Assembly (NCBI GenBank): GCA_032718475.1
Contig: JAUCBJ010002263.1
Coordinates: forward strand, 28,565 to 92,564
Reading direction: 5' to 3'
DNA length: 64,000 nt
Source of the DNA: Nemertoderma westbladi
Lineage: Eukaryota; Animalia; Xenacoelomorpha
Shown piece after piece: positions 667 to 54,376 of the stretch (positions within the stretch are counted from its first letter, which is position 1; each line of letters opens with the position of its first letter). A model generated the notes under the pieces. The model saw nothing but the letters and a program-made list of their open reading frames with translations, was not told the DNA's origin and searched no databases. The position numbers and the translations under genes were made by a program.

Positions 667-1182
667 TAAGTAAGACTGTTTTCACCAATCGAAATACAAA
701 ACTATTTACAAATACTTCTAAGTCTACTGGTAGGGCCTAAAATATAAAACAATCACTATCTAATTATTGCATACTTAACATTACAGGTACAGCGTAAATA
801 CAATCCATCATACATACAAAATACAAATTTACAAATCAACTTTAGTGCATAAAATACAAAAAAAAGGCTTTCGGTTATCAAGATAAACAAAATAAACAAA
901 TCAGAACAAAATAAATCAAAACGAATCGAACAAATAATTGCAACTCTTTCAATAAATCTTTATATATTGTAAATATACATAATAAACTTCCACCAAATTA
1001 AATCAGTCCAAATATAAAATAAACATAAGGCGCTAAAATCCTTTAAATAAGTCTTAAAGTGTCCTCCTGACGATCTAAATAGTTCGTCCTGCTGGTCTGG
1101 ATGTCTTCTCCTGAGCACTAATTGCTAACGGTAGGCTCGCAAGCCTTCCTTCTCTATCTCGCTCCTCCAAATCAACGTCCGA

Positions 1183-1334
1183 TATAAATACCAAAATATA
1201 ATATCCAAACATAAAATATCCAATATAAATATCCAAATATAAAATATCCAATATAAACATCCAAATAAAATATCCAAATATAAAATATCCAATATAAACA
1301 TCCAAATAAAATATCTGAATATAAATATCCAAAT
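1183..1334. repeat. ~14-15-bp AT-rich tandem repeat (ATATCCAAATATAAA-like) in 3' UTR of element 1
   Basis: About 10 visible units, flanked by two copies of the 20-nt hairpin motif. Confidence 0.85.
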
Positions 1335-1370
1335 CGGTAGGCTCGCAAGCCTTCCTTTCTTCTCGCTTTC

Positions 1371-2873
1371 CTATTCCTTGGCTGATCGGGCTCGTCCACA
1401 TCCTCTAGTGCGACTGGGTGGTGGTCGAGATCGAACTGGACTCGGACTTCGGTGTCGAGTTATTGGTGGTTCCAAAACGCTAGGAAAGGGGACGACGGGA
1501 GTCTCACACATCCGTCGTGCGCTCAGTCCTCTAAATCCTCGTCCGATTCCAACTGTCGGCTTAACATCGGATCGAGTTTCTACAACGCTGGGAGGAAGTC
1601 GAAAGGGTAGGACCATTCCGTCCGTTGACACCTCGCTCTCTGACGTCGTTTGAATCCTAATGGGTTCCGGCAAAGCGTATCCTGTCCCTCCGCGTGGTTC
1701 TCTAGCGAGGGAAACCGTGCCCCGAGTCATCCGGATTTGCGACTTCGATGTCGTCCTCTCGGCGACATTTACTACTTTCTTTATCTCTTGTCCGGCCTTT
1801 TGGGCTCTGAGTATACGAAGTTGCGGATCATCCTGTGGGTGACGTGTCTTTTCAGCTAACGGCGTGGCCTTGAAGCCAGTCTCACGCAAAACGTCGGTCT
1901 CGTCTAGAATGCACGAGGTTACGCGTTTGTGATAAAATGCGCTCCTGTATGCCCAAGCTATCGAATGCCAAGCTCCTCGATTCCGCTGTTCAACTCGCAA
2001 TTTGTCGAATTCCCCGGCGGTAATCTTGTTCACCACAGTTTGAAAGTTCCAAGTATTCTTGTTGTCGGGGTGTACCTGTAGAAAGTAGTCCCGCACAACT
2101 TTAAATCCGCTATCCAGTGGCAATATATCCAGCACCTCCAGAAGTTCGTCGTACTGAGGCATAGCCGACACGTATCCTTCCTTCGACATTATGAGAGGGT
2201 TTACGGCCCAAAATCCCAAGTGGGCTCTCATAGGAAAACGGCGTCGCTGCGTTGATACATGCTCGTCTGCTAGATTCTCCCAATGGTCGAATAGCTGTCG
2301 AACGATTTTAACTGACATATGCTCATAGGGAACGTCCCTATGTTGACATTCGGACGCCCTATGGCCTTTAATATTACAATATGTGCACTGCGCCACGAAA
2401 CGCCAGCAAGTGTAGAAAGTGTGCGAACGCTGATCCCCGCACCAGTTGCATACCAAGTCCGGTAGAGATATGTGTTTCGCTCCGCATTTCTTTGCGTGGT
2501 GGCCAGTTGCCCCGCATCTGCCACAAATAGTGTTGGCAGGGTACCAAACTCGCTCATAGATAAGATCTCCGATGGGGCGAGCGCTACCGTCTACGTGATA
2601 ATTCTCATCATCCGGGTCAGTCGGTATGTTCGTCTCTGTGGGTTGTACACAAACCATGACATCGCTTTTCTCCAACTCGCGTATCTCAGTTCGCGTCTTC
2701 CTCGGAAGATTCTCCTCTATTTCGATGAGTTGCCGCAACGGTTCGTCTATTAGCGCCAACTCGGTCAGATCCACATCGTCGTGATGGGCGGTAGGCTCGC
2801 GAGCCTTCCAGGATCCTTCCGGGCGTTCGAATTCCGCGTGGCGTTCCCCGTCGTAGGGTACTAACGTTAACAT
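1371..2873 (-). CDS. Accessory protein, C-terminal part: three CCHC zinc knuckles plus RG/RS-rich tail
   Basis: CGRCGATGHHAKKC, CNWCGDQRSHTFYTC, CTYCNIKGHRASEC; tail GIGRGFRG...RSPSPVRSR...GRARS. Clear homolog at 36150-37586. In frame with 2991-4784 across one TGA. Confidence 0.8.
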   Translation of the reverse strand: MLTLVPYDGERHAEFERPEGSWKAREPTAHHDDVDLTELALIDEPLRQLIEIEENLPRKTRTEIRELEKSDVMVCVQPTETNIPTDPDDENYHVDGSARPIGDLIYERVWYPANTICGRCGATGHHAKKCGAKHISLPDLVCNWCGDQRSHTFYTCWRFVAQCTYCNIKGHRASECQHRDVPYEHMSVKIVRQLFDHWENLADEHVSTQRRRFPMRAHLGFWAVNPLIMSKEGYVSAMPQYDELLEVLDILPLDSGFKVVRDYFLQVHPDNKNTWNFQTVVNKITAGEFDKLRVEQRNRGAWHSIAWAYRSAFYHKRVTSCILDETDVLRETGFKATPLAEKTRHPQDDPQLRILRAQKAGQEIKKVVNVAERTTSKSQIRMTRGTVSLAREPRGGTGYALPEPIRIQTTSESEVSTDGMVLPFRLPPSVVETRSDVKPTVGIGRGFRGLSARRMCETPVVPFPSVLEPPITRHRSPSPVRSRPPPSRTRGCGRARSAKE

Positions 2874-2990
2874 CGACGGTCTGTCGACTAGGCTTCCCGC
2901 GTGAGTGAGATAGACGTCCCTGAAAACGCAAAGTCCCGCTCGCGTGAAAACTTCGCAGTGCGCATCGGTGTTATAAAAGGGTTGGAGAAA

Positions 2991-4784
2991 TCATCGGAAT
3001 ACATCCGTATGCATCCTTCCTCCGTCGTAAAAGGTATGTCCTTCACCGAGACATAACGGATGTCGCTTCAGAGTCCTAGACACAACATCGGCGATGAAGC
3101 AGACGTTGACCGAAGATTCTATCGCCAAGTAATATTGTAAGATTATTCGCGGAGGTGAAGTAATCGCCCAGTACACGCAACCTCGCCACTTTAGCTGTGA
3201 CTCGAACTCGTTTACGTCGGGAGTGTCTCCCTCTCCGTATACGTCCGTGTATTTGCTCCTCTTACTCTCCTTATAATCCCAACTGAACATTAGATATGAG
3301 ATATAACCCGTCCCAGTTTTTAGCGTGTTATACTCCCTAAAGTATCCTTGCTCGATAGCCCAAAGCAACAATGGTCTAGTATCCACGTATGGCGTAGGCA
3401 ATCGGTCCTCTTCCGTGGGCATCCCTGCAAAGTCGCTAATAAGGTCATCCTGTACACTGGATCCGATCTTGACGATGCTTTTGTCTAACACAACGTCTCG
3501 CATGGCCTTTGGCAACATCCTAGCTTCTATGCTACAAGCCAGGTCCATGGATTTAACTATCCGTTTTATCATCGCGTGTCTTTGCGTCGTTCCTTCCGGC
3601 ATAGGCATCTTTCTATCGCTTCTTTGTCGGCTGAAGACATGTAACACGCCATCTGGTGCTCTAATCTGTATAGTCTTTGAAGTGAGGCTTTGCTGGTGGC
3701 TTCCTCCTTCATTATCGTAAAACATGTAACCATTCTCCTTCAGAGATCGGCTAGTCACGTCCCAATCGTCGAGTAAATCGTCGGTAGGGTTCCAAATTCT
3801 CCCAATCGACTTTTCATCATCGAAACTAATAGGTTTTCTGGTCCAATTGGTCGCGATGTCGGTGTCGGTCTCGAATGTTCCAACTCCGATCCATAATCGA
3901 ATCGTTCTCGTCAGATATCCTCGCAAGATACAAGGTGCGATATCCGTCCCTGCGCGATCCACTTCCTTAAAATCCGTAATATGTGGAGGCACATTGCGTA
4001 CGATTTTCTGAACTATTGTTCTACGCAACTCGGCTGACTCTAACACATCACCATAGGTAACCGATGGGAGGAAATCCAGGTTCGAAATGATCTCCGGGTG
4101 TTCAACTATAGGGATCTCGTAAGTTGTCTCCTTCCGGGTCGGTATACTAATAGGAAAACTAGTTGGTCTCGCAACCGGTACTATCGTTCCAGCAGAATGG
4201 GGTTGAGGTTCTCGCGTCATCTCGACATGAGGTATCTGTAGTCTCTGCGACAAACGCTGAGCAAAGGTGATACTATCGAAGAGCTCGGGTGTCATCTCCT
4301 TAGGTTCGGTTTGATCGTGGGATATCCAATAGAATGGTAGGCTCGCGAGCCTTCCGCCGAACTCCTCGATCTCGCCTTTCTCGTACGCCTTGTACGCCCT
4401 GTAGAGGCTCAAAGCTTCCCGTTTCTCTTGCGTCGACTTATTAGATTCGTCCACTACCATGCTGTAGACGTCTGGTTCGACTAATTTAGGTTCGTTAATA
4501 TGCTTTCGTCCTTCTGGGCTCCTCCCGGAGGCGCACCCACGAGGCGGACGTGTTTCCACCACCCCTGGGGCCAGTCTGACTGATGTTATTATCAGACCGG
4601 GCCGGAGGGTGGCCCGATGCTTCCCGGGTTCTGTTTTCGGTCCCCTGATCACACCGGCACAGCTCGTCGAACGTGTAGCCAGATGGATGGCTACTGTCAA
4701 CTTACTGTGGCCTGACTGTACATTGAGCCAACTCAAAGTATAACAAAGAGTCAACCGGCAGGTGGACCAGTCGATAGCGATCAA
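2991..4784 (-). CDS. Accessory protein, N-terminal part: DEDD/DnaQ-like 3'-5' exonuclease (WRN/EXD/Mut-7-like fold)
   Basis: FYDNEG (ExoI DxE), TIQIRAPDGVLHVF, LPKAMRDVVLDKSIVKIGSSVQDD (ExoII), YVDTRPL, LQYYLAIE (ExoIII-like). True start uncertain (ATG at 4460 or spliced). Confidence 0.6.
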   Translation of the reverse strand: MIAIDWSTCRLTLCYTLSWLNVQSGHSKLTVAIHLATRSTSCAGVIRGPKTEPGKHRATLRPGLIITSVRLAPGVVETRPPRGCASGRSPEGRKHINEPKLVEPDVYSMVVDESNKSTQEKREALSLYRAYKAYEKGEIEEFGGRLASLPFYWISHDQTEPKEMTPELFDSITFAQRLSQRLQIPHVEMTREPQPHSAGTIVPVARPTSFPISIPTRKETTYEIPIVEHPEIISNLDFLPSVTYGDVLESAELRRTIVQKIVRNVPPHITDFKEVDRAGTDIAPCILRGYLTRTIRLWIGVGTFETDTDIATNWTRKPISFDDEKSIGRIWNPTDDLLDDWDVTSRSLKENGYMFYDNEGGSHQQSLTSKTIQIRAPDGVLHVFSRQRSDRKMPMPEGTTQRHAMIKRIVKSMDLACSIEARMLPKAMRDVVLDKSIVKIGSSVQDDLISDFAGMPTEEDRLPTPYVDTRPLLLWAIEQGYFREYNTLKTGTGYISYLMFSWDYKESKRSKYTDVYGEGDTPDVNEFESQLKWRGCVYWAITSPPRIILQYYLAIESSVNVCFIADVVSRTLKRHPLCLGEGHTFYDGGRMHTDVFR

Positions 4785-5671
4785 GCACCAAGGTCACCCC
4801 TGGGCCTAACCGACAGTCTTGTCCCAAGCGGGCTTGCGCTACCCAACATTGGAATTTTGACACGTTTTCACCTGCCTCGCCGGCAGTATTGAGGGGAAAT
4901 AAGTTCCGCAAACAATACTGACTAGCTCGAAAGCTAGGAACAAGTAACCACTTACCAGTCACTGTACACGTGTACTCAACAGATGTTCACAAATCAAGTA
5001 CACAAAAGGTAAACACAAAATCGAACACATACCATGCACACACAGAGACAAAATCGGTAAAGACAAAATCGAGGTCAAAGTTAGAGGGGACAAAATTGTA
5101 TCGACTGAAAGCCAAAAAAAAAGTCGAGAGTACTTTATTTTACCGTCAGGGTAAAATAACTTGTGTGTACAAAGCATGCTGGGGTGCAGTAGAGATATGG
5201 TCCTACTAATACCAGCGGCGTCTGGACCAACTGGCAAGGGTTCCCACACTCACTCGCACTGGCCATACATACAATCACGTGTACTCACGTACCCACAGCA
5301 ACAGAAAGCTCAAAGACCCAAACAAATTCCAAAGACCAATCAGCTGAACATGGAGACAATAACATATAGTATCAAAAAAACGGAACAGCTGATGGCCAAA
5401 GGAACCCATCCAAGCCCCAAGCAAACTGCCACCGATTGCCCACATACAAAACATAGTTCACGCCACATGAGCCACAAATCACGCCATGCCACCACCCCTA
5501 CTGTGTACAGGACTGGCAGTACAGCAACAGGCCGACTAGACGGTACCACGGCACCATGTCGATTCATGGTTCGCTAGACACGAGGGCCTTAAGTATCTCC
5601 CTTGCACTTACGCGGTACTTTAACGTGCCCCCAGACCCTCACGAGTCCGCCGCCGCCTGTTGATCGCACCC

Positions 5672-6313
5672 CTATAGGGACCTCACCTCTTTAGGTACGA
5701 TCTCACCCGCATTCGGTCCACTCATTTTAAACGAATGATACGGATTTGTCAAAGGGTATCCGCCTTCTTGGTAACGTAGACTTTGGTGGTATGAGCATCG
5801 CGCTAATATCGGCTCGGGGTTCTCCGAGTTCAACCGCATAGGAATCGCGTTGTCTTGCTCACGCATACACGCTCCACATTTATAAAACAGTTTGTATATG
5901 GAGAACGCGTCCTTGGTCTCTGGATCCGCTCCTCGAGCGCGTCTATAAAGATGCATTCCTTCAAATTCGTCTCTGGCTGCAGGTAAGGGTTCATTTACCG
6001 TCAAGTATTGCAGCATATGATATAATCGGCGTATTTCGGTGTCTGGATCCTCGCAAATGTCGCTAGCGTCGCATAACGCGTCGTAAGGATATAACGCATT
6101 GAACTCCGCACGTAATTCCTCCGTTCTTTTGTTATATGCGTCCAATCGTTGTCGTGTAACATTCGGGTCCGCCTTGGATTTAGCGAGCTTGGCTGTACTC
6201 CTAGCCATACTCTCCACTCCAAACACACTAAAGTTTTTAGCTCCATAACGATTAAATGGCGCCTGGTGCTCTTGTTCCTTGACGTAACTCTTTATAAATC
6301 TTCTCCGCCATCA
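5672..6313 (-). CDS. Accessory ORF-A of element 1, unknown function (possible Zn-binding CGAC...CSYH); frameshift near 6290
   Basis: APFNRYGAKNFSVFGVESMARSTAKLA aligns with APFERFGAKDYTIFGIKELSESTAKLA at 35983-36219 in element 2. Confidence 0.6.
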
Positions 6314-6485
6314 TATACGCATATATAACCCCACAATATTTATTACTATTAATGAATCAATCACAATTACAAACAATATTAACAAACAAACAATTGCACA
6401 GATACCCATCACCAAGATACAATGAAACTTTTAAAATTTATTTGTAAGGAGCCCAAAATTTTGAGAATTTTTAGTTTAAAACGCT

Positions 6486-9400
6486 CTAGACGCTAGGTAG
6501 CCCAGCACCGTCATCCAGCCCTAGGCCGCTCCTCCACTTCACCCTGGATCCCCGAAGGCAGTGGGTGGCGCCGCGGATGACCGCCAGCTGGATGCGGGTT
6601 CGAACCCAGCCCATGGTGACGCTGTAAGGACGCCCCCATGACCGATGCAGCCAGTCAGCCACCACGCGAAGCAGGTGATTTGCCTGAGGAGCGAGTACTC
6701 CGCAGCAGGACGCAACGAAAGGCGAAAAGTCACCTCTTCGAGCAGTAACTGCGTCCGCATAGAGCCGCCTCTTCTCGTCTTCGGCAGACACTAGTACTGA
6801 CATCGGGGCGCGACCCACGTAAGACTCGGCGTCAAGGTTTACAACCCGGATGTCTATCAACGCCTGAGTCTGTGGGTTTAGTGCGCCCCGGATGCCCACG
6901 TCACACCGAAGACCAGCTGCTCCCTCCTCCCCCTGCTGCTCCCGGACTATCGGCTCACGCACCACGTTACGCGGTCCAAATGCGAGCGCGGCGAGATCCC
7001 CGAAAACATCCCGCAGTTCGTTATGGCGTTGGATGACAAGGCCGCCTTTTTTACAATTTAAACCGTGGTTTAAATCAAAGGCGGCCCCACACCCATCGCA
7101 CCTGCTCGGAACTGCCGCCAAGGGGCGACCATAGCGGATCGCCAGGGCGTCCCGGAACTCCTGTGGCGACAAGTCTAGGTGGTGGTCGGCTAGCGGAACA
7201 GCAGAAATCCACCCACTCGAGCGGAAATCGGCGGCACACCGCACTGTCCGGCTGCGGCAGTCCGTTAACTCCTCTAGCGTGGATTCGAGGTCGACTTTCT
7301 CCCGCAACATCTGCTGTTCCCGACCCTCTTTCCGCGCTCGCTTCAGACAGTCCAGATGCTCCGAGTGTATGTATGAGCTCTTACCGAGTATGGCTGCCGC
7401 GAGGGAAGCGGTCCCCTTCTGTGAAACCGAGAAGGACTGGGCAGCCTCGGACACCGGATTTCGCAGCCCGAGCCCAGCGTTGCGGGGGGACAGACCGAAC
7501 AGTTTTCTCTCTTGGGAGGATACCTCACTTCCTAAGATTGCCGGAAGAAACCGTTCGGTTATCGCCTCCTCCAGCACCTCGTATTCCTCACTACAGTCCG
7601 GGGTTACCCGTTGTAGGTAGGCCCACTCCCGCTGGAGGGAGCAGGCCATAGCCGCAAATGCGGCTTGGGGCTAGGCCTCTGCCATCTCAGCGCAAGACGA
7701 TCAACAGAGTCGACCCACCCTGCTACCTTAGCCTGGACATGGCCCCTCCTCTCTACAGCGCCGCCTATGTACCCGTTGAGGAATCGATGACCTGACACAA
7801 TATTTATCGATTGGCCCGCAAAGACTCTATGAGCCTCCTCGACAAACTCTGGGGCTACTACGAGGTAGCATTTCTTTGGCTCCGGGAAGTATCCGAGAGT
7901 TGGTCCGAAACGCTGTAGCTCGATGAACCATTCGAGAACCAGCTCCAGTCTACCTCCCGCCCCTGAGTCATCCTCATACCAGTTCTGAACCAGTTGAGTA
8001 TCCGGTGGTTTACGCAGGAGGTGAATGAAGGGGAGAATCCCTGAAGAATACTCAAGCATAGCGAGAGGATCTCCCTGCGTGGTGCCCTCCTCACTGAATA
8101 TCACCTCCTCGGTCCCGCGTATTGTTAGTATGCCATGCCCCCGGTAACTATTGAACAGAAACAGGGAGCATCGAGGCCACAGCCGACGCGCATTCCACAG
8201 CGCGGCTGTCCGGTTTAGAGAGTTAAACGCGTTTGACGCGTCTATGAGGAGAAACCCCCAGCCATCATCACTCCGTTGATCGAACAGATCTGCCATCGTG
8301 TGGACAGCGGCCTCCACCCCTGCTGATGTGCCGGCGGAGAGCTGTTCAGCGCCGCAGGTTGCCGTAATATCATCCCCCGTGGCTTCAGCCATTGAGCGAC
8401 CGAGAATGCGACGCAAGCATTCCCCGATCCCGATCGGCCGAACTCCTGGGCATTTATCCAGGGCAATCAACCGACACGACATAAGGGCACGTGCGGACTC
8501 CCACGGTATAACTGTGTTGGCGAAGGACCGGGCGATATCGGCGATGGCGTCATGAAGGCGTTCGCTGTGGGCGCTGTATCTGAGTAAATAGTCGCCCCAG
8601 CGAGTTGAGTCTGAGCCCGCCGGGCCGGCTCCCCCATGTAGTCGGCGAGCAGCAGACTCGACGTGGGAGGCCGTTATGTCAACATCGACACGGATTGGGA
8701 GTTCTTCATCTGGTTGAAGGAGAGATTCTGGGGGGGGGGGTTCGGAGGCGGGTGGATGCTTGGCTCTCAGGATATCGAGGACTTTGACATTTCCTCCTCC
8801 CATGTCGACTTCCTGGTTAGGGTCTAATAAACCGCCGCTCTCCCGACCGGTCACCCAGCGTACAGCGCTGCGTACCTTCCCTTCTAACATCAGACGAGTA
8901 AAAACTCGGATCGTGTGATCCTTGTCCTCGCCAGCCGGCTTGCTTCTCGCTCGCCGCCCTGAACTGAACTTGAGGGAGCAGCGCTCCGCCTCCTGTAGTA
9001 AGGCCTCCATATTCCCGGCCTTCCACATCTGTAATCTGCGGCTCAGAAGGCGCCGGATGTCCGCGGCCTTTGCAACTTTTGGGTCGCGGTGGAGGAGCAA
9101 TGCGTCCAAAAGTATGATCCTATCCGAACGCGCGTTGGCTATGTTGTGGCGCAGCCCAGACACGAAGGCCGTCGCTTCCTCCGCCAGCATCGCAACACGT
9201 CACGGCCCACTGCACCCCCTGGTAGTCTGTATTTGGAACCGCAGAGCTGAGTCGCCCGTCTCCACTGATGGAGCAGGCAGTCCGGCACGGCCCCCTTCCC
9301 TACCAGTGGGGCCCCATATGCCCTCGTCATTAGGTCATGAGGGTCGGTGTTCCTTCGGGGCTCCCCACCTGTGCTCCACTGGTTGCTGAACACAGTTCCG

Positions 9401-10604
9401 TCCGTAGCAACTTGCGGCTGTCTCACGGTTTGCAAACCAACAGGCGGACCCGTGGGTACAGACAAGCCAACAGACGGACATGTGGGGACAGACAATCTGA
9501 CAGGCGGACCCGTGGGGACAGACAAACCGACAGGCGGACCCGTGGGGACAGACAAACCGACCGCCGGACCCATGGGGACAGACAAACCAGCAGGCAGACC
9601 CGCGGGGACAGACAAACCGACAGGCGGGCCCGTGGGGACAGACAAACCGGCAGGAGGAGCTGAGGGAACAGACAAATCGACAGGCGGACCCATGGGGACA
9701 GACAACCCGCCAGGCGGACCAGTGGGGACAGGCAAACCGACAGGCGTACCCGTGGCGACAGACAGACCGACAGGTGGACCCGTGGGGACAGACGATCCAA
9801 CAGGCGGACCGGGTGGGACAGACCCGAACCCGTGGGGACAGACTGGCCGACAGGCGAACCCGTGGCAACAGACAAACCGACAGGCGGACCCGTGGGGATA
9901 GACAATGCGACGGGCGGACCCGTGGGGACAGACGAACCGACAGGTGAACCCGTGGGGACAGACAAGCCGACAGGCAGACCCGAGGGGACAGACAAACCGA
10001 CCGCCGGACCCGTGGGGACAGACAAAACAACAGGCGGACATGTGGGGAGGGACAAGCCGACAGACGGACCCGTGGGGACAGACAAACCGACCAGCGGACC
10101 CGTGGGAACAGACAAGCCGACAGGCGGACCCGTGGGGAGAGACAAACCGACAGGCGGACCCGTGGGGACATACAAACCGACGGGCGGACCGGTGGGGGTG
10201 GACAGACCGACGGGCGGACCCGTGGGGACAGACAAACCGACCACCGGGACCGACATACTGACACGGTATGGGGAACGGCGTGTCACCAACGTGTCGCTCA
10301 GCGAGTGAAAAGAACAATCGCTGTCGGACCGGTCCGACAATGTATCGTCATGGGAGTCGTCCCCCCTCCCCAACTCAGAAGGAAGCGGCTGGGAAAAGGA
10401 CGTAATCGCTGACGCCGGCCCGTCTCGTTGTCCATCAATGATCGGGGTGGGTTGAGGGGTTGTCGGCGAACCGACTCCGCCGTTCAGGCACCGTCTCCGC
10501 TTGCCGGGAATGCAGTCCCAGCATTCTCGGCCTGCCCTTACGCAGGGGCACCACGCACCGCGCTTGCAAGTGCCGTTAATACCGCATCCGCAGCATGAGG
10601 GCAT
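6486..10604 (-). pseudogene. Single ORF of the CRE-like element (Cys-rich N-terminus, decapeptide repeats, RT, CCHC, PD-(D/E)xK endonuclease); frameshifts near 9830, 9200 and 7670
   Basis: RLIALDKCPGVRPIGIGECLRR, DASNAFNSLNR, EGTTQGDPLAM, WYEDD, GYFPEPKK; CDGC..NHGLNC..RHNELRD..RCD..DIRV. Confidence 0.85.
9433..10252. repeat. 30-bp coding minisatellite (~27 units), encodes TGPPVGLSVP
   Basis: Unit GACAAACCGACAGGCGGACCCGTGGGGACA repeated with variants. Confidence 0.95.
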
Positions 10605-23292: not shown

Positions 23293-23334
23293 ACCAATTT
23301 GTACCAAATGAAAATAAATGGCCCCAAAATACAA

Positions 23335-23838: not shown

Positions 23839-23904
23839 GTACAGAATTTCAACTCATTTAAATTGACCGCTACAAATTAAATTGCATTTGTCTGTACCTA
23901 GATT

Positions 23905-24085
23905 AACCAATGGGACTGTAGTTATTAGATTGTAACCAATGTCGTGCAAGTTATATATTAGCTGGACCAATAGCTATCTTTAAAAACCTGTTAGAACCTA
24001 TAGAACAATCGAGAATTTTCTCGATTGATTGCAGCACAAATTTGCTATATAAAGGTGCGATTTCGTTCATTAGTTCACTACTTCT
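23905..24085 (+). promoter_or_regulatory. Pol II promoter in element 2 LTR: three CCAAT, heat-shock element, TATA, initiator
   Basis: CCAAT x3; aGAAc aATCg aGAAt tTTCt at 24002-24021; TATATAAA at 24046-24053; TCACTACTT about 30 nt later. Confidence 0.65.
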
Positions 24086-26329: not shown

Positions 26330-29300
26330 ATGAGTGACAAACAAGACTATACGAAGAATACACCTACCGACTATGACTCATGTGACGTGGATAAGTCAGC
26401 AGCGGAAGAACTACAGGGGAAGACTCGCGAGCCTACCGAACCTACACCGTGTGCGTCACCAGTACATCCAACGGGAGTACCGGATGCCGTAGTACGAGGC
26501 GACGGCAGGACCGAGGACTTTCTAACTGTTCCGCAACCTAGATACAGGGAAACGGACATGGTAAGTTCAGTAGGAAGCCAGGAGAGTGTGGTTAGAAGCG
26601 TCGGAGGCTACATGGCGCATATTACCAGGAGTATTGGAGAAGGCCAACGCATATTAGACGAGTTGACCGCTCCGATGTCTCGGTTTGAGTTCTACACCCT
26701 CCAGGTTAGAGTACAAAGTAGAGTACATAAGTCCGTAGATAACCTTATCAGTCTACAAGATCTAGCTAGACAGAGACAGGATATGGATACTCAACTTAGA
26801 ATCCTCGAGAAGTTAACGATCGCTAGAGAGAAACTGATTCAGTTTAAGTCGACGATTAGGCAGATACAACAGGAACAAGCGGACCAGTTGTTAGGTGAGT
26901 CAGTTTCGGACGAGTTATTGCAACCCGAGGAAGAACAGGAACTGTATAGGCTGGATGGACAATTGAAACACCTGACGGATCACTTACGCATGTGCGGCGA
27001 GGATGTCGGAGATTGGGAAACCGTGCCGGAGGCTACGAGGGAAACTTCACTCGCACAAATCGAACTAGTACCAGGAATACTAAGTCAATCGTTGGTAAGT
27101 ATTCGTAGCGAAATTGGCGAGGGAAGTATGGTCACGTCAGAAGTTGCTCGACAACAGCAACAGTTCTACAGACAGCAACACGAAATGGAAGAACAAACTC
27201 AACTGCTAATAATACAAGCAGCGGTAGAGGAAGAGAAACTACGCGTTGCAAACGTTGCGAGAATCTCTCATCTGCAAGAACAAGCCGAGTTGGAAGCAGC
27301 TGAGATGGAAAAGTTGGAGCTAGAAATAGCACAGCGAACAGTGGCAGCTGAGTTAGCGCAACAAGCGGCAGCAGCTGAGTTGGAACGACAAGCAGCAGCA
27401 GCGGAGTCGGAGCGACAAGCAGCAGCAGCCGATTTAGAGCGACGAGCAGCAGCAGCCGATTTAGAGCGACGAGCAGCAGCAGCTGAGTTAGAGCGACAAG
27501 CGGCAGCGGCAGCGGCAGCGGCAGCGTCCGAGTTAGAGCGACAAAGGTTAGTTTCAGAAGCCAGAGTCGAGATGAAAAAACGGCAAATAAAGGCTCAATC
27601 AGCTATACGACAAGCGGAGTTCGAGGCGCAACAACAACAAACGGAACAACGAGAGAAGGAAGTTAAACTTCGTTTCGAACTCGAGAAGAAGGCGAGAGAA
27701 TTAGCCAACGCGAAGGAAGATCTGGATCTACAAGCCCGCGACCAATCGATGAGATCTCGAGACGGACATGATTTAGACCAGATGGAGGTAAGGCACCGCC
27801 AAATCCAGGAACGAATGAAGGAAGGTTCGATAGGAGCACCTGGACGGGAAAGACAATTGGTCAAAGACTTATGTCAAAGATTCCCTCAAGTAACTCCTAT
27901 GTTTGCACCAGTTACGACTAAGGAACCTGTTTCGATTGCGGGTAGTAGTAACATTTCTCCTATCCATGGTGCGACGGAACACAGGTTTGTTATTCCGGAC
28001 AAGTTTACACCGCCAAGAGCAACGTCATCGCCTATTCCGAAAGTCAAGGTAAGTAACCCACCGATTACAGATCGTAGTAGTTTGTTGACCGCACCTGCGC
28101 TACTGACGACAAAACAGGTGAGTCCACCTTTGACGCCAAAACCTGTCACGCACTACACGTACCCAATGACGTTTAGGCCTACAAGGCCTTTAGATTCAAA
28201 TGCTGTCATTCGACCACCGGTTCAGTTTACATCGCAATCTACGACTTCGAGGAAGACTTGTGAGCCTACCGAACAACGGAGACCAGTGGATACGCGACCG
28301 TTCAACCAGTTTACATCGCAATCTACGACTTTGAGGAAGACTTGTGAGCCTACCGAACAACGGAGAATAGTGGATACGCGACCGTTCAACCAGTTTACAT
28401 CGCAATCTACGACTTCGAGGAAGACTTGTGAGCCTACCGAACAACGGAGAATAGTGGATACGCGACCGTTCAACCAGTTTACATCGCAATCTACGACTTC
28501 GAGGAAGACTTACAAGCCTACCGAACAACGGAGACCAGTAGACGATGTTCCGAAACGGAATGTTAGGATTCGAACGACACAACGGACGCGAGCACGTCGA
28601 CCACCGTATCCAGGTGACAGTAGTACTTCAAGCGAGTCGGATTACCCGGAACGCGAGGTATTTAGAACAGGAGCGGCCGACGAATGTAAACGTGAGCGTT
28701 CAGACAATTCCTTTATCAATAATCCTCCACAAAATACACCAACACAGAAAGCGTTACAACCAACGGACGCAATTAGTACGCAACAACTCGCAGAAATAAT
28801 GCGCCCAGTTGTAGACAAGTTGGCCCAAATAGAGGAACGTTTAGAAGAAACTCAAACTGATAGTTCGTGAGGTAACGAGTTCGAACACTTTAGACACCCG
28901 AAGCAGCAAAGAAAACAACCCTCGAGAAACACTTCGTATCAAGGAAAAGCGCCAAGACGAGAGAACATCAACTCGATTGCCAACCAAGGACGCGAAACTT
29001 TGAACGTGGCCGAGGAGATAGCGAAATTCGCAGCGAGACAAGGTTTACCGGTACAACAACCACCGAAGTTTTCAGGTAACTCGAAACATTGGCACACCTT
29101 TGTGGACTACATCGAAACACAAATAGCAGCGTGCGCCTTTACATTGAGGGAGAAATTCAACTACCTGCTACAAACGCTGACGGGAGAACCGAAACGTCTA
29201 GCAGAAACCTTTGTCGGTGTACCAGATGCCTTCGAACTAGCGTATGATCGCTTAACTTCGATTTACGGAGGCACGGTGAGTATGGCTAAGTCAGTGATAG

Positions 29301-32300
29301 AAGAACTCTGTAAGGGGGGGGCTATAACAAAACCCGTTGACTTACTAAAACTAGCTGACGAGATTAAAAACGCCATTACTACACTACGCTCGATTGGACA
29401 ACTTGACTACGCGAACACTCCGACAGTTCTATTAAAAATAATAGGAAGATTACACCATCGACTTCGTCGGGAGTGGCGAAAGATAGAATATCAGCGAGAA
29501 GAGAGAGGCGGATTCTTGAAGTTGGAAGACGTCTACCTACTGATATCCAGAGAGGCAGTAGTCGAGACGCGTTCGAACTACACGGACCAACATATTGTGG
29601 CGGAAGGAATCACACTACCTTCATCGAACCGACAGAAACCCCAGACAACATCCACTAAGACGGCCACTTACGTTACGCCGACGGAAACCCGACGATCTTC
29701 AGACGGTAGTAAGGTGTCCGCGCCCATTGGCACCAAACAGATCCGACAACAACTAAGTACAGACTTTAGTGGTTGCCAATACTGCGAGCAGCTAGGCAAG
29801 CGGCACACTGGTCACAAACTAAGAGGTTGCCGGTTATTTCGCGAGTTAAACTCGGAAGAACGACGCCTGCAGATACGGCCATTAGATTCTTGTTGGCGGT
29901 GTACGCTACATGGACATGTCCGTAAGGACTGCCCAAATACGGACACCTGTCCTTCTTGTGGACGCAACCACGACGGCTTGCTACACACCGACAGTCATAC
30001 GCCGACAAAACGCTTCACAAGGGAACACCCGGAAGCTGCAGCAAGATGCAACACAGCATACAAGGGTCGAGAGTCGAAAACAACACCGACATTCGTGACA
30101 CACATTAGAGATTGTTTCTCGGAACAATCAGGATCGTCAGATGAAGAGTCGGAAGAAGACGACGTTTACTTTGATACTGGAGACGAACAACCATCGATTG
30201 CGCTCCTGACGCCTGATCAACTAAAGGGGTTTAGCATAATTCCCGTCAAGATTACTGGCACCAAAGGGAGCAAGAGGATCTACGCTATCCTGGATTCAGC
30301 CTCATCTCATAGCTCTGTGGATGAGAAAGTAGCTGATGTTGTCACGGATCTTAGACAAGGTAAGAACGTCAGTTACACCATAAGTAGTATGCATGGACAA
30401 CGTGCAATACCAGTAACACGAGTTAAGTTGAACTTAGACACTCTTCTTCCGAAATCGCAACATAGCGAAAAGGAGAGGTCTTTGTTACCCTTTAAGGATT
30501 TAACCTTTGCGGCCACAAAGGACTTTAGTAACCTACTAGGTCCTGTCCCAGAACAATCCTTGGAGGACCGTAAGTACATCAGACACCTTGGTGTACCTGA
30601 ATGTCCTGTCAATTATAGATCGGTAGCAATGCTGATCGGGACAGATCAATTCAACCTACATCAAGTGTGGGAAACCAGGCCATCGGCAGTCGTAGCGGGA
30701 AACGCATACGCCTGTAGAACGCCGATAGGGTGGTATACTCGAGCGCCTGTGCGCACACTGGATATAAGTGACGAGGAAGACGATATACAAAGTACATGTA
30801 GTTTATTAACTACAACTTCGACTCATTCCTTTTCACACGACGTAGACTATACTACACTACAGTCAAGTTCGACAAAACATGACACGACGTGTGTAGCTAG
30901 CATGATAAGTCACAAGGAGCAGCTAATCCACCAGGTGAGTTTAGAACTTGGGGAGAAGACGAGTCAGCCAGAGATTCCATCGACGACAGACGATAACGCC
31001 GGAAGGCTTGCGAGTCTACCTACACCAACAACCTCAACAATGCCCGTCGATATCGATGATGACGCGTTAAGAAATCATCAAGTGGAACAAGCTGCATTGG
31101 ACAAAGAATTAACGGAGAAGACTATCAGGTGGTTAGAACAAGATACAGCTGAACCTGGTAGCTACGAACCATGTATGTCGGAACAAGAGAAACAATCTTT
31201 GAAGATCATGGAAGATACTATCCGCCAGACGAAAGACGGACATTATGAGGTAGGGATGCTATGGCGTAACCAACATCCTAAACTCATAAATAACTATCCG
31301 CTAGCCTTAAGACGTCTACACTCAATACGACAACGTCTATTAAAGGACGAGAAAGCCCATCTGCAGTATAATACTCAGATGGAGACGTATTTGACCAAAG
31401 GATACGCTATCCGAATGACTAACCCAGAGATAGTGACTGACCAGACATACTACTTGCCACATCACTACGTGAGACACCCCGACAAACCAGACAAAGTATG
31501 TGTAGTCAATGACTGTGCGGCTCTGTTTGAGGGGATGTCCCTCAATAGCGAGTTGATGGATGGACCAAACATGAACAATTATCTTATGGGGGTGATTATG
31601 CGCTTCCGTCAGCGTCAAGTAGCCTTTACTTGTGACGTCGAAGCTATGTTTCACCAAGTGAGAGCGTTAGAGCAAGACAGAGACAATTTGAGGTTCCTCT
31701 GGTATCCGGAAGGAGACTTAAGTCTACCACCGGCGACTTACCAAATGCAAGTTCGCGTTTTCGGTGCCAGGGACAGCCCAAACTGTACGATGTATGCCCT
31801 AAAGCAAGCCGCTAGGGATCAGAAACATTTATATGACCCAGAGATAATTAAGATCGTAGAACGTGACTTTTACGTAGATGATGGTTTACAGAGTTGTGAC
31901 ACAGTAGAACGTGCTATAACAGTAGCACATCAATTACGGGACTGCTTAGCGGGCGGAGGTTTTAACCTCACCAAATTCGCCTCAAACAGTGCCGAATTGG
32001 TAAACTCATTCGGAACGACTGAGCGTGGAGGTGGTGACATTGACCTAGAGTTCGAACCACTACCGACGACCAAGGTGTTGGGGCTCTTTTGGGATCCAAA
32101 CACGGACAACTTTCGAGTGAAGGTGAGACTGGACAGTCAAGAAAACACACTGACAAAGAGATCCTGCTTGTCAAAATTGAGCCGATTGTTCGATCCATTA
32201 GGATTCATCAGTCCAATAATACTGCAAGCCAGAATTTATATGCGCAGTATTTGGAAGGATGGACTAACATGGGACGAGCCGATCTCATCAGACCAAGTGG

Positions 32301-35300
32301 ACTTATGGAAAACCTGGGAGGCAGAATTATCTTCGCTAGAGGATTATTCCATACCCAGAGTCTACTTTCCATTACAAACAACGTTTCCTGACAACTTGGA
32401 ATTACATTGTTTTTCCGACGCCAGTGACAACGGCTTTGGTGTGGCAGCGTACTTGCGCAGACAAGTAGACTCAGAAGAGTTCGATGTTTCGCTCATTACT
32501 TCTAAGGCAAAAACAATGCCTACTAAGTATATGACGACACCACGAGCTGAGCTACAAGCCGCAACCCTGTCAACCACAATCGTGAACCTTATACAGACTG
32601 AACTACAGTCAAGTTTACAGATATTTTATTGGACTGACGCGACGTTGGTTTTATTTTACATAAACAACGACACACTTGAATTCAAGACATTCGTAGCTAA
32701 CCGTCGCGCAGAAATTCTAGACCGTTCAATAAAAGAAGATTGGCGACATTGTCCCGGACCACAAAACCCAGCCGATATTGCGTCAAGAGGAATGATGCCT
32801 GAGGAATTCTGTAAACCAGAGAACAAAGAATTTTGGCAGCACGGACCACAGTTCTTGCAGGGATCAATACAACATTGGCCGCCACTATACGACAACAAGT
32901 CTAACACTATCCCTAAAGACGCGGAAATTAAAAAACCAAAGAAAGGGAAAGCAAAGAAAAGGACGGCGGCGAAACTTAAGAAAAAACCGAAGGCGAAATG
33001 GAAAGCGATAACTTCAAAGGTCAAGAACGGAAGACTTGCGAGCCTTTCTACACCAGACATATCGCCAGACGGTCAACCAGACACGTTACTAGACGGTCAA
33101 CCAGACACGTTACTAGACGGTCAACCAGACGTTTTGCCAGACATGTCACAAAATGTTCTACCAGACACTAGTGACATATTGACAAATAGTAAAGCCGCAG
33201 TTTCTCTATTGGAGCGGCCTTCTATTGACAAACAACCAGACGCGTTACTAGACGGTCAACCAGACGTTTTGCCAGACACGTCACTAGATATTTCGCCGGA
33301 TGTTCCGCGAAACATTTTACCAGACATGTCACAAAATGTTCTACCAGACACTAGTAACATATTGACAAATAGTAAAGCCGCAATTTCCCTATTGGAGCGG
33401 CCTTGTATTGACAAACTACCAAATTTGACACACTTGAGCAACAATAAGCACAGCGAAACCTCATGTATTACAGATGTGGGTAGTACCTACGCTAATGTAA
33501 ATACAGGTGTTACTTTGCGCTCAAGAGACATACCAAACTTGCAACCTATGGTGAGACCCGGGATTAATATCGGCAGAAAATAAAGTTTACCGAAACCCAC
33601 TGACCCCATAGAGTTCAAACCACCATTAACGATCGACTTACAAAGTACTGCCAATCAAGGTAAGAAACCAAAGAAGGACAAATTACTTGTAGACCCGGAC
33701 GGATCAACAGTCAACAAGGGAATACCTACCGGCGGACCCGTGGGCCCTTCTAGTAAATCAAAACCTTCAAAATTCTCCATTGACTTACCTGATGACGTCA
33801 CAAATACTTACGTCGACCGTATTGTAAACTTAACAGATTCTTGGACAAACGCGTGCCGAAAATTAGCGTGGATTGTACGTTTTGTACAATACGTTAAAGG
33901 CAAACGCGACTTTACACGTCGACTTACATTGACTGAGATTGACAGGTGTGAAAGTAAATTAATTCGCCATTACCAACTGCGATATTTCAAGCGCGAATTC
34001 ACATCTATAAGCCAAGGTCAACCAATCAAGTCGTCACCAATATTGAGTTGGAGTCCGATAATTTATAATGGCTTAATTTGTCATAAATCTCGGCTTCAAA
34101 ACATTGACTTTAACACAAACTTTAGATACCCAATAATAATACCGCAGCATCACGAACTACAACGTGCAATGATACTGGACGCACATTTACATCTGAAACA
34201 CGCTGGAAGACACCACTGTCTTTCCTACTTACGTACAAGATTTGTATTAATTAGACCCAGTAAAGCATTAAGTTCAGTGACACGTACGTGTATTATTTGT
34301 AAAAAGGTACATTCTAGAATAGGCACTCAAGAAATGAGTGAACTTCCACAAGCACGATTTCAAGCATTCAGACCACCTTTTACATAGACTGGAATTGATT
34401 GCTTTGGTCCCATACATACGAAACGTGGACGTATACTAGTAAAACGCTGGGGACTGATTTTCACATGTATGTCCAGTAGGGCAGTTCATATTGAACGTGT
34501 GATGGATCTTTCTACCAACGCGTTTATACTAGCACTGCGGCGATTTATCGCCAGACGCGGACTAGTGAAATGCTTGTACTCAGACCAAGGGACAAACTTT
34601 GTTGGTGCTCGAAATGAGATTGCTAGAGCCTTTAAGAAATTAGATCATGACCAAATCTCAAACGAACTACGTCCTTACAAGATTGTTTGGAAGTTTAATC
34701 CTCCAGATAGTCCATGGAGAGGCGGAGTCTGGGAGAGATTGATTAGATCTATAAAAACAGCCATGGCAAAAGTAATTCCAGTAAACCACATTTTGACAGA
34801 CGACCAACTGACAACACTGTTTGTTGAAATCGAGGCAATACTAAATACTAGACCAATAGTATTAGTACCCGATGACAAACAATCCCAGTTTGCTTTAACA
34901 CCAGCACACCTGCTTATGCAGGCACCGACTACTTTGACGCCGATTTCTATTCCAATAGAAGGTGATAGCTATGGTAGAAAAGCGTGGAAAATCACGCAAC
35001 TACTAGCTAACAAATTCTGGGAAATATGGTAAAACCATTATTTGCCCTCTATTTCTGCCAGAACAAACTGGTACAATAACACCCGCGCATTAAAGCCGGG
35101 AGATCACGTGCTGTTAGCAGAAGTGAATCTAAAAAGACGCTTCTGGATAACAGGTGTAATTTTAGCCACACATCCATCTATGGATGGAGTGACAAGAACT
35201 GTGACGGTACGGACAATTGACGGTCGTACAGTTGACAGACCGACTCAACGTCTCGTACTTCTTGAAGAGACTCGAAACGAGTCTGGAGACTACAAATCTC

Positions 35301-35320
35301 CAACAAATGTTAGTAAATAA
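26330..35320 (+). pseudogene. BEL/Pao gag-pol polyprotein of element 2 (~2997 codons in one frame, 4 nonsense codons)
   Basis: Stops ending at 28870, 33583, 34387 and 35032 are all in frame. Motifs AILDSASSHS, FYVDD, HCFSDAS, H..H..CIIC, GIDCFGP, YSDQGTNF, GGVWERL. Confidence 0.95.
28222..28540 (+). repeat. 84-bp coding tandem repeat (4 copies) in gag, each carrying the 20-nt hairpin motif
   Basis: QFTSQSTTSRKTCEPTEQRR.. x4; motif starts at 28251, 28335, 28419, 28503. Confidence 0.95.
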
Positions 35321-35982
35321 TTAGGAGTTTACAAATAGATTTCCACGTACCTGTACACTGTAGTAAGGACAGCGGTAGAATTCCATTGTCTTTATATGTG
35401 AACATTGAGGGTAGTACCCTTATGTGTCACATAGGAGCGGGATTTGTAGGTATAAGAAATGGAATTCTACTTGGAACTCACAATATTGAGACATTTTCGA
35501 AATTTTAGACAATCCATTTGGATTTGAAAAATTTTTAAAATTTTCTCCAGTGAATAGATTTCAGGGTACAGTCGGGTGGAACTTAAAATTAGAGAAACAA
35601 GAGAGGAAGACTTGCGAGCCTTTCTTAAGATTTTAATTAAATTTTACACGGTCTTGTTTCAATAAGTTACGTCAATAAATAGACTTCCCTATATTTATTA
35701 CTAACTCTTGACTGCTTATTTTCTGATAATAGTTTGGGATCAAAAAGTGAGTATTTTAGACTCACAGCCAGTTTAGCCTAAATTGTTTTTATTTCGGCAA
35801 AAAATTTTAGATAAGAAGCAGCGTGTCATTAAAGAAACCCTAGATCTTAGGCTATGGGTAGGAGGTTAGAGCGTTGTCGAGCCAAAAGGGCAGACGAAAA
35901 CTCTCACGTCTCCTCACAACTAACTACAAACTCTGTTGTATTCCCTCTAGTAGCAATGATTATGTAACCATTACTTCCAATA

Positions 35983-36219
35983 ATGGAGAAGGGGATACAA
36001 GGAGAGCCGAGATGGGGATATGATATCCAAGAGGAAGCAGCAGCGCCATTCGAACGATTTGGAGCTAAAGATTACACTATATTTGGAATAAAGGAATTAT
36101 CAGAAAGTACAGCGAAACTCGCAAACACTAAATATGACACGACGGTATCGTGGAGGTTACGAACGAATCACGGCAGACGCGTGCGCCTATCGGTCACCTT
36201 GGTGATGATTTCGAAGTAA
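35983..36219 (+). pseudogene. N-terminal remnant of accessory ORF-A, cut by internal deletion
   Basis: Homology to 5672-6313 ends near 36150. Confidence 0.65.
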
Positions 36220-37586
36220 CTACTACGATCACTGACGATCCTTTAGAGGAACTTCTTGAGATAGAAAGGAACCTCCCGAAGAAATCTCAGACGGAGATTC
36301 GACAACTTGAAGCAACAGATGCTATAGTTTGTATACAACCTTCAGAAACCTATCAACCCATAGATCCAGATGATTACGATTATAGTGTGGGAGGAAGCGC
36401 TCGACCGATTGGAGATCTTATATATGAACGAGTGTGGTACCCTGCCAATACGATGTGTGGTAAATGTGGCGTCGCTGGACATCATTCGACCAAGTGCAGT
36501 GGAAAGCACATTACTACGACTCAGCTAATCTGTGGATGGTGTGGAGATCAAGGGTCTCATACCTTTTATACTTGCTGGAGATTTATGGTTCAATGTACTT
36601 ATTGCAATATAAAAGGGCATCGAGCATCTGAATGCCAACTAAGAGACATACCTTATGAACACGAATCTGTAAAACTCGTGAGAAAATTATTCGATGAGTG
36701 GGAAGATTTAGCCGACGAACATGTATCGGCACAAAGAAGACGATTTCCGATGAGGGCGCATCTTGGATTTTGGGCGGTAAATCCCCAAACGATGATGTCG
36801 GAAGGATACATCTCCGCTATGCCCCAATATGACGAACTTATCGAGGTAGTCGATATTTTGCCCCACGACAGTGGATTCCGAGTAGTGCGCGAGTATCTAT
36901 TACAGATTCACCCAGACAACAAGAACACGTGGAATTTTCAGAAAGTCGTAAATAGTATCACGTATGGTGAATTTGATCGTTTCCGAACTGAAAAGCGGAA
37001 TAAAGGAGCTTGGTTAACCGTCGCATGGGCGTACCGAGCCGCGTTTTACCACAAACGTATACGAGCGAGCGTATTCGAGGAAGAGGAGATCCTAGAGGCG
37101 ACCGACATACCAGCCACTCCGGTTGCGCCGTCTGCACGTCACCCTCGGGAGGACGGACAGGGTAGGATCATAAGGGTCCAGAAAGTGAGCCAACAATTAA
37201 AGAAGTCTATTAATATAGAAGAACGCAAGGGAGTTGAGCCGACCATTCGAGTTACTCGGGATACGGTATCGCTTCCTAGAGAACCAACAGGAGGATCGGG
37301 ACATACACCAGCTGATCAAAAGGGGGCGCAAGCTGCTCTTGGGTCTGCATCGTCCGCTTCTCGCGCGTTCCCAGACGTTTTACCAACTGTAGTGACAACT
37401 GATCGGTCACGAGGAATCGGTCGAGGTTTTGGGATGCCAAATAGACGAATTTGCGAGGAAACGGTCGCACCGTCTCTCAACGTCCAAGCGAAACCAGTGA
37501 CTCGCCCCACGAGTCCCATATCGCGAGCAAAGTCACCTGTGCGCAGTTTTCGAGGACGCGGCAGGGCTCGATCTACTAAGCGATAA
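36150..37586 (+). CDS. Accessory CCHC zinc-knuckle / RG-tail protein of element 2 (exonuclease part absent)
   Basis: CGKCGVAGHHSTKC, CGWCGDQGSHTFYTC, CTYCNIKGHRASEC; RGIGRGFG, RGRGRARS. Collinear with 1371-2873. Confidence 0.75.
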   Translation: MEVTNESRQTRAPIGHLGDDFEVTTTITDDPLEELLEIERNLPKKSQTEIRQLEATDAIVCIQPSETYQPIDPDDYDYSVGGSARPIGDLIYERVWYPANTMCGKCGVAGHHSTKCSGKHITTTQLICGWCGDQGSHTFYTCWRFMVQCTYCNIKGHRASECQLRDIPYEHESVKLVRKLFDEWEDLADEHVSAQRRRFPMRAHLGFWAVNPQTMMSEGYISAMPQYDELIEVVDILPHDSGFRVVREYLLQIHPDNKNTWNFQKVVNSITYGEFDRFRTEKRNKGAWLTVAWAYRAAFYHKRIRASVFEEEEILEATDIPATPVAPSARHPREDGQGRIIRVQKVSQQLKKSINIEERKGVEPTIRVTRDTVSLPREPTGGSGHTPADQKGAQAALGSASSASRAFPDVLPTVVTTDRSRGIGRGFGMPNRRICEETVAPSLNVQAKPVTRPTSPISRAKSPVRSFRGRGRARSTKR

Positions 37587-38374
37587 AAGGGAGGGCAAGG
37601 GTGGACGGAAGACTCGTGAGCCTTTCTTGTGAATTTGTGATTTATTTGAATTATATGTTTTTATATTTTGTAAGTTTTGTATTCTGGAAGAACTTATATT
37701 TAGTAAGACTCATATTTAGTAAGATTTATATTCAGTAAGAATTTATATTTTGCAAGATTTATATTTTATATTTGTGATTATTCCGAACTTATGCAATTTT
37801 TATTGTTCCGAATATTATGCAATTTATATCTTATAAGCAGTGTTTGTATTTACAGTGAAATAGAAAGTAAGAGTAGATGGAAGACTCGTGGGCCTTTCTT
37901 AAAGTTTCATTTGTAAAGTGTTATATTTCGTATTTAGAAAGTTTTATAGTTAGAAAGTTTTGTACTTAGAAAGACTCATATTTGTAATTATTCCGAACTT
38001 ATGCAATCTACATTTAGGCACGAAAGTATTTGTAATTATTTGAATTTATGCAATATTTGAGATGCAATAGTAGATGGAAGACTCGCGAGCCTTTCTTATG
38101 ATTTTCATTTATTTGTATTTGTAATTGTTTGAATTTATGCAATATTGAGATGCAATAGATTTATATTGGTGAATTTAATTTAGATTTATATTGTACTTAC
38201 TTAGTAAAGCCTTAAATATGTAAAGTTTGAATTTGTAATTATTTTGTATCGAATCATTATGTAGAAAGGAAGTATTGTTTGAAATTTAATTTGTAAATAT
38301 GTAAGTACGCCCTAAGTATTCTATAATTTGATTGATTATTGGTGAAAACCGTATATTTTATGCACGATAATATC

Positions 38375-54373: not shown

Positions 54374-54376
54374 TAT

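Follow-up and report, generated by a model that had tools for sequence, protein, structure and literature searches.

The window analysed here, a 64,000-nucleotide stretch of the Nemertoderma westbladi genome (contig JAUCBJ010002263.1), carries two BEL/Pao long terminal repeat (LTR) retrotransposons, called E1 and E2, through which the subject of this report, a 20-nucleotide motif, is dispersed in 25 copies, 12 in E1 and 13 in E2 (Table 1). The elements are arranged head to head, with a gap of 92 bp of a 21-bp satellite, of which 5.8 kb also lies downstream of E2; this shared insertion in the satellite, 92 bp apart, suggests targeting. The Pfam families PF03564, PF05380, PF17921 and PF18701 occur in this order, giving the Metaviridae-like domain layout of Pao-type reverse transcriptase (RT)/RNase H, Gag and integrase, and the best Pol homologs are BEL proteins, at 37-44% identity. 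E1 is about 20 kb long when its nested long interspersed element (LINE) is excluded. According to the list of open reading frames (ORFs), its gag-pol is interrupted by in-frame stops and a frameshift; that of E2 is interrupted by in-frame stops, and in the alignment of the two elements the E1 region at ~6200-2900 has no counterpart in E2. Since the LTR copies are 99.4% identical in E1 (1-650 against 22896-23545) and 99.3% in E2 (1892 bp), both insertions are recent, and the thousands of public contigs that align to the two, all from one organism (15237, from one run, to E2, and 485 to 246 bases of E1), mark them as multi-copy families.

An earlier note, made from the letters of this DNA, had listed 24 copies of the motif, and all 24 are present where it placed them, including a weak one at 33731 that scores below 8 bits with a weight matrix and yet, as the ortholog of 13066, is a genuine degenerate copy. 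The same holds for a 25th copy, at 36172 (14.3 bits), which is absent from that list and is the ortholog of 2790. With at most one mismatch, the consensus pattern of the note finds 21 distinct sites, while none of 100 dinucleotide shuffles gives any match. The weight matrix, built from 23 copies in element-sense orientation, yields 23 sites above 16 bits in addition to 36172, all of them within 1130-38095 and none in 40260-64000 (the last ~24 kb); no site above 16 bits appeared in 30 Markov-3 simulations. All 24 matrix matches score higher in the sense orientation, a comparison made with a matrix that is itself sense-built; the asymmetries at A3/A18 and in the YGYG centre lie in the sequence letters and are no artefact of the matrix. 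Within the 64-kb window the motif is therefore found in one orientation and in the elements only, and the matrix scan agrees with the note that it is absent from the LTRs and from the nested LINE. The copies form eight spaced clusters per element, which recur every 0.6-2.8 kb and occupy inter-domain linkers and 3' non-coding DNA; in E1 they are more evenly spaced than expected at random (p 0.006), in E2 not clearly so (p 0.08), a measure confounded by the conserved domains, and the coding copies sit in polar linkers (polar flank fraction 0.70 vs 0.57 in RT/RNase H). Among the tandem duplications said to multiply the motif, those of 84 and 93 bp were recovered as repeats, whereas the 78-bp one survives only as an exact 78/78 spacing with diverged flanks.

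Table 1. Features of the window and copies of the 20-nucleotide motif
Feature	Position	Strand	Remarks
E1, BEL/Pao LTR retrotransposon	1..23545	-	Pfam, LTR pair, ORF list; 3' LTR truncated by window edge
E1 5' LTR	21572..23545	-	~1.97 kb, inner end inferred; motif-free
E2, BEL/Pao element	23625..40279	+	16.7 kb; LTRs 23625-25516 and 38392-40279; Pfam, alignment to E1
21-bp satellite	40279..46106	.	Also 23533-23624 between the elements; E1 and E2 both inserted in it
Nested LINE	6328..10766	-	Target-site duplication of 13 bp; motif-free, serves as internal negative control
E1 accessory ORF part, three CCHC knuckles	1371..2990	-	ORF list; ORF 2991-4793 precedes in the same frame, one stop between
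E2 accessory ORF part, three CCHC knuckles	36138..37586	+	Knuckle domain 73% identical to E1
Copy	1130..1149	-	E1 3' non-coding
Copy	1336..1355	-	E1 3' non-coding; ortholog 37607
Copy	2790..2809	-	E1 accessory ORF, phase 1; ortholog 36172
Copy	4336..4355	-	ORF of E1 accessory region, phase 0
Copy	11127..11146	-	E1 non-coding, behind pol; ortholog 35605
Degenerate copy	13066..13085	-	E1 RNase H-integrase linker; compensatory C8-G13; ortholog 33731
Three copies (15766, 15844, 15922)	15766..15941	-	78-bp spacing, E1 protease-RT linker, phase 0; orthologous to 31001
Two copies (18462, 18555)	18462..18574	-	93-bp duplication, E1 gag, phase 1
Copy	19604..19623	-	E1 gag, phase 2; no counterpart in E2
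Copy	26418..26437	+	E2 gag N-terminus, phase 1; colinear E1 stretch motif-free, no indel
Four copies (28251, 28335, 28419, 28503)	28251..28522	+	84-bp tandem repeat, E2 gag, phase 1
Copy	31001..31020	+	G6.U15; only E2 copy with G6
Copy	33029..33048	+	E2 RNase H-integrase linker; no counterpart in E1
Degenerate copy	33731..33750	+	E2; compensatory G4-C17 and C8-G13
Copy	35605..35624	+	E2 non-coding, behind pol
Degenerate 25th copy	36172..36191	+	E2; compensatory G8-C13
Three copies (37607, 37879, 38076)	37607..38095	+	E2 3' non-coding region

The constraint on the motif acts on nucleotides, as had been proposed. Eighteen of the 25 copies lie in ORFs and seven are non-coding; the coding ones are read in three frames, as GRLASL (phase 0), K(A/T)(C/R)EPT (phase 1) and, in a single copy, EGSRAY (phase 2), and an explanation by a peptide motif is thereby ruled out. 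Four-fold sites are saturated between E1 and E2: the two agree at 45 of 172 such sites in RT/RNase H and at 20 of 67 in the accessory domain, while in the four pairs of orthologous coding motifs they agree at 10 of 11 (p 5e-5 against 0.3); because synonymous sites are kept in the motif and saturated elsewhere, selection must operate at the nucleotide level. Over seven orthologous pairs, 113 of 140 motif letters are identical, as are 191 of 420 flank letters. Variation in the E1 family, assessed on contigs from two runs aligned over 246 bases of E1, 60 of them motif letters, amounts to 15 variable places, four private to the window copy (one in the motif) and 11 segregating; none of these 11 falls in motif letters (p 0.04, or p 0.09 when all 15 variable places are counted). 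In diverged contigs the similarity breaks off at the borders of the motif (loose ends at 15765, 15786, 15863 and 15921), and two contigs join motif to motif across spacers of 30 and 37 letters unlike the window sequence; since the motif is kept across such spacers, it is carried by further families.

These data bear on the idea that a host RNA-binding protein or small RNA targets the copies, or that they spread neutrally by template switching in reverse transcription, which we regard as very unlikely. Same-strand copying would preserve the orientation, several copies do derive from tandem duplication, and the variation consists mostly of transitions that wobble pairing tolerates; however, conservation at saturated synonymous sites contradicts neutral spread, and such spread also leaves unexplained how the copy at 26418 was gained or lost without an indel in a colinear stretch. 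A host reader would be identical for both elements, yet position 6 of the motif differs between them element-wide. As for a host small RNA or RNA family, an Rfam search of the copies gave no family matches and one unrelated weak match, and no complementary half-site exists in the sense strand of E1 or E2. Two origins are likewise unsupported: a mini-insertion at 26418, where E1 is colinear and no indel occurs, and derivation from the satellite, whose 8-letter core CTCGCGAG forms the centre of 5 of the 25 copies and is all that is shared.

The label of hairpin given to the motif by the earlier note suits E1, in which the copies fold with a mean of -7.7 kcal/mol, and not E2, with a mean of -1.8: the sense stem is stable in 12/12 E1 copies and weak in 12/13 E2 copies, the same number of E2 copies carrying an A6.C15 mismatch. 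Five E2 copies pair 3-18 instead, so that the single mismatch is shifted and none is added. Pairs 4-17, 5-16, 7-14 and 8-13 are complementary in 25/25 copies. The compensatory C-G pair already noticed at 13066 is present, and it is joined by two further ones, 8-13 G-C at 36172 and 4-17 G-C at 33731; the double changes represent three independent events (8-13 C-G in the orthologs 13066 and 33731, 8-13 G-C in 36172, and 4-17 in 33731), some of which alter amino acids. Covariation, which the note had suggested as a check, is apparent in the score (0.205, reached in 0/500 shuffles and at most 0.131 in slid controls, with the relatedness of the copies inflating it), and only in the score, as discussed below. 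Guanines occupy the second and fourth centre positions, G10 in 24/25 copies and G12 in 23/25. Over 18 collapsed sites, represented by the first copy of each cluster, the changes in the centre are one-sided, C>T 14 and G>A 0 (p 1e-4), while family-wide changes are balanced (C>T 204, G>A 212); all 25 copies give C>T 22 and G>A 3, and for two of these three G>A changes (28512 and 15852) G is the letter in nearly all the other contigs of the family. Decay of CpG, being neither compatible with one-sided change nor accompanied by depletion in E1/E2 (observed/expected 1.1), is ruled out as the cause of YGYG. A likeness to the histone stem-loop and to ADAR sites was dropped, the stem being shorter, the loop different and the neighbouring base unfavourable. 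To the extent that the letters can tell, the intact stem pairs with their double changes and the one-sided centre favour a motif that works as single-stranded RNA over a symmetric DNA site.

A double-stranded DNA site would be bound by a protein of the element or of the host that keeps the long element transcribed in satellite heterochromatin, much like VANC targets or Sirevirus motifs, and we consider it rather unlikely. The motif is indeed a 20-bp near-palindrome with a family-specific variant, the weak folding of E2 copies is no obstacle to DNA binding, and both elements sit in a satellite that shares the CTCGCGAG core. In the portions of the sources at hand, VANC motifs are also multiplied by tandem duplication (PMC5735166), and the palindromic Sirevirus motifs are of similar length and occur in 8-32 copies (PMC2829016). 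A symmetric dimer site predicts symmetric tolerance, however, while here the change in the centre and the A6 that faces an unchanged C15 are both one-sided; double changes that preserve complementarity are unexpected for DNA, as are the strict sense orientation, the absence from the LTRs and promoter region, and the lack of CpG depletion. CCHC knuckles, moreover, bind mostly single strands.

The whole 20-mer is self-complementary when G.U pairs are allowed, such that copies can pair with one another, and they may be RNA-RNA pairing sites that compact one RNA or link the two packaged genomes as a dimer in a distributed manner, with the nucleocapsid acting only as chaperone. Positions 9-12 and 10-11 are also complementary (G.U allowed) in 24/25 copies each, which explains YGYG exactly; a duplex is predicted to be 6-20 kcal/mol more favourable than two hairpins, in E2 as well (means -31.5 for E1 and -16.4 for E2), and the minimum-energy folds of three multi-copy stretches join copy to copy in 3/3 cases. 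Palindromic dimer sites are described for Ty1 and retroviruses in the parts consulted of PMC5454406 and PMC7599994. A preference for duplexes is predicted for any palindrome, though, and known dimer sites are few and lie in the 5' region. Furthermore, the element-wide A6 adds two mismatches to each E2 duplex, and E1xE2 duplexes (-22.1) are stronger than E2xE2 ones (-16.2); since A6 destabilises the E2 duplexes, pairing alone would select against it. On balance, pairing as the sole function appears unlikely.

The letter at position 6 is G at 9/9 E1 sites and A at 8/9 E2 sites, in the same genome. Degenerate copies show this switch yet keep the site-specific letters common to their E1 orthologs, which disfavours whole-copy conversion, a process that would erase them. 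As the host factors are common to both families of the one genome, a switch coordinated over a whole element suggests that the reader of the motif is encoded by the element. The zinc-knuckle proteins put forward in the earlier note are credible candidates: the accessory ORF encodes three CCHC knuckles, in a domain that is 73% identical between E1 and E2 and conserved like RT. Searches with the accessory protein gave no full-length match and three weak knuckle-only matches among 1.84 billion, two word searches were empty, no PDB match was obtained, and atlas leads all remained below 0.9; its fold model, at pLDDT 37, is too low for use. Ahead of the knuckles, the E1 accessory region 2844-3806 (minus strand) contains, across an in-frame stop, what looks by eye like a DEDDy exonuclease segment, unconfirmed by Pfam, and by PDB for the part that precedes the stop. 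A Cys-rich ORF at 5672-6310 (minus strand), with no Pfam match, belongs to the E1 accessory region rather than to the LINE, and it matches E2 near 36036-36087.

Taken together, these observations lead us to propose that the 20-mer is a dispersed tag on element RNA for the element's own zinc-knuckle protein, a reading whose chances we judge to be evenly balanced. Purifying selection holds the 20-mer as a nucleotide signal at spaced clusters along each element. In the RNA, each copy would form a short stem capped by an NGNG loop, a fold that is stable in E1 and weak in E2, where protein probably stabilises it, and CCHC knuckles would grip the two loop guanines, as does the nucleocapsid protein (NC) of HIV-1 on the hairpin SL3. 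The putative reader would be element-encoded and more likely the accessory protein than Gag, because motif and accessory ORF occur together in these elements and searches of 80 distant relatives gave neither one; the loading of protein along the ~18 kb RNA could mark and compact it for export and packaging. A wider proposal, which is tentative and on present evidence doubtful, is that of a giant BEL/Pao lineage with private RNA tagging, in which an orphan accessory knuckle protein would read a signal placed every 1-3 kb on its own RNA, the two co-evolving family by family as VANC does with its DNA targets, with self-recognition of the 18-kb RNA serving protection, export and packaging.

Several observations weigh against the proposed tag. 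Its double changes are confined to the three most degenerate copies, and the second half of the covariation check failed, in that 151 of 500 shuffles reach the observed count of pairs changed on both sides. Within 60-nt flanks the sense stem has a probability below 0.1 in 12/13 E2 copies, and E2 copies fold better antisense (-4.4 vs -1.8 kcal/mol sense). Departures compatible with G.U pairing are of five kinds in sense and four in antisense, so that wobble alone fails to choose a strand, and transitions dominate all change in the elements, which makes Y at centre positions 1 and 3 partly expected. The matrix scan finds no motif in the 5' leaders (20352-21571 in E1, 25517-26314 in E2), the usual place of packaging signals in retroviruses. 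In Gag and accessory protein alike, the knuckles of E1 and E2 have different sequences, so that both proteins are candidates for the reader. Finally, on stretches of 5-10 kb the scan that was applied to distant relatives finds only three clusters even in the E1 and E2 cores.

Those relatives are 80 loci kept out of 529 distant BEL loci, mostly on 5-10 kb contigs. They gave two matrix matches just above 12 bits and none above 16, de novo repeats of at most 3-4 copies, and no excess of NGNG or GNRA hairpins, the latter lacking an excess in E1 and E2 too; a tblastn search with the accessory region against 81 distant BEL loci found no match. The motif peptides occur in 0 of 120 homologous proteins. 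Viral contigs contained one single motif match and no BEL relatives, and prokaryote contigs 30 single matches in 30 different contigs, with ~35 expected by chance in 596 Gb. No such motif for BEL/Pao elements was encountered in the literature covered, which lay outside Repbase, GyDB, subscription journals and supplements, and the word 'motif' is absent from the accessible part of PMC3118150.

Other features of the window deserve brief mention. The LTR termini (21572, 25516 and 40279) have CATTA ends, and the E2 LTR starts with TA; beside the 5' LTR ends of E1 and E2, a TGG start of an 18-nt tRNA primer-binding site was sought, with host tRNAs outside the comparison, and none was seen, which possibly reflects non-canonical termini or priming. 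The 5' leaders harbour a second type of hairpin, with a GCC-loop-GGC core and AT-rich stems, in tandem copies in E2 (26140-26255, plus strand) and as a single copy in E1 (20585-20625, minus strand); fold z values are -2.3 and -4.7, and the position is where a classical packaging signal is expected. Repeats of 12 bp that code for a PD-rich peptide have expanded independently in the RNase H-integrase linkers of E1 (13345-13760) and E2 (33050-33420). The nested LINE shows a weak RT match, by eye the look of a C-terminal restriction-like endonuclease, and a 30-bp coding tandem repeat in 27 copies; an opposite-strand match of 14 letters between this repeat and copy 33731 is probably due to chance. 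The satellite core TCTCGCGAGA presumably resembles the vertebrate BANP/CGCG promoter motif. A degraded Polinton-like element lies at 51000-62000 (minus strand), with matches to B-type polymerase, A32 ATPase and endonuclease VII and a region of 70-190-bp repeats at 56600-57400.

To our knowledge, little is known of how LTR retrotransposons select their own RNA beyond yeast Ty1 and Ty3. Here, a discrete, strongly conserved 20-nt signal that is specific to its family comes in two natural variants, with two candidate readers for it at the same locus, and this reduces the question to a small in vitro binding problem. If the accessory protein is the reader, the VANC arms race would have its counterpart at the RNA level, and RNA tag and protein would form a natural, orthogonal pair; if the copies pair mutually, they would provide genome-long dimer linkage.

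Among known systems, the elements themselves are closest to the Belpaoviridae, with which they share the order Gag, protease, RT, RNase H and integrase, Pao-specific Pfam families, LTRs and a polypurine-like tract. The family profile gives genomes of 4.2-10 kb and LTRs of 0.2-1.2 kb, calls Bel/Pao replication poorly understood and mentions no such motif (PMC8742986); E1 and E2, at ~20 and 16.7 kb with LTRs of 1.9-2.0 kb, exceed this typical range, which does not exclude them from the family, and they differ in that an orphan zinc-knuckle accessory ORF replaces env and that no primer-binding site is seen beside the LTR. Among DNA-level motifs, the Sirevirus RM (8-32 copies) is likewise a palindromic, high-copy, element-specific motif of an LTR retrotransposon, of putative function; in the part of the source consulted its clusters lie in the LTR and ahead of the env-like gene, it has a CGG-CCG core and it is read as DNA regulatory boxes (PMC2829016), whereas the motif of E1 and E2 is absent from the LTRs, spreads through gag-pol and has a YGYG core. 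The VANC targets of Arabidopsis VANDAL elements are, in the available portion of PMC5735166, 8-9 bp, non-palindromic, in non-coding DNA of a DNA transposon and tied to DNA demethylation; like them, the present motif is short, element-specific, multiplied by tandem repeats and perhaps co-evolving with an accessory protein of the element, and unlike them it is 20 nt long, polar, covarying and mostly coding.

RNA-level systems come nearer. The palindromic dimer sites of Ty1, PAL1-3 (PMC5454406, seen in part), and of retroviruses, DIS (PMC7599994, also in part), are self-complementary, and the motif shares with them a predicted ability to switch from hairpin to intermolecular duplex; they are few, mutually different and placed at the 5' end, whereas E1 and E2 carry a repeated family along the genome. 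According to the same portion of PMC7599994, HIV-1 NC binds G2 and G4 of the GGAG tetraloop of SL3 in Psi. The motif resembles SL3 in its predicted stem-loop of ~20 nt, in the G that fills the second and fourth places of the 4-nt loop, and in the CCHC knuckles that the elements encode; SL3 exists, however, in one copy in the 5' leader, and here 12-13 copies per element occur with none in the leader, the stem being unstable in E2. Closest by function are the dispersed packaging signals of single-stranded RNA viruses, described for MS2, picornaviruses and the hepatitis B virus pregenome in a review (PMC6281560) whose consulted part names Gag-like Arc only as a possibility and holds no case of an LTR retrotransposon. 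As in those viruses, one motif of sequence and structure is common to many sites scattered over the genome strand of E1 and E2, with the structure weak in E2, and the many predicted stem-loops overlap coding sequence and would be read by the element's own protein; the viral signals share few loop letters, whereas the motif of E1 and E2 keeps 20 letters nearly fixed.

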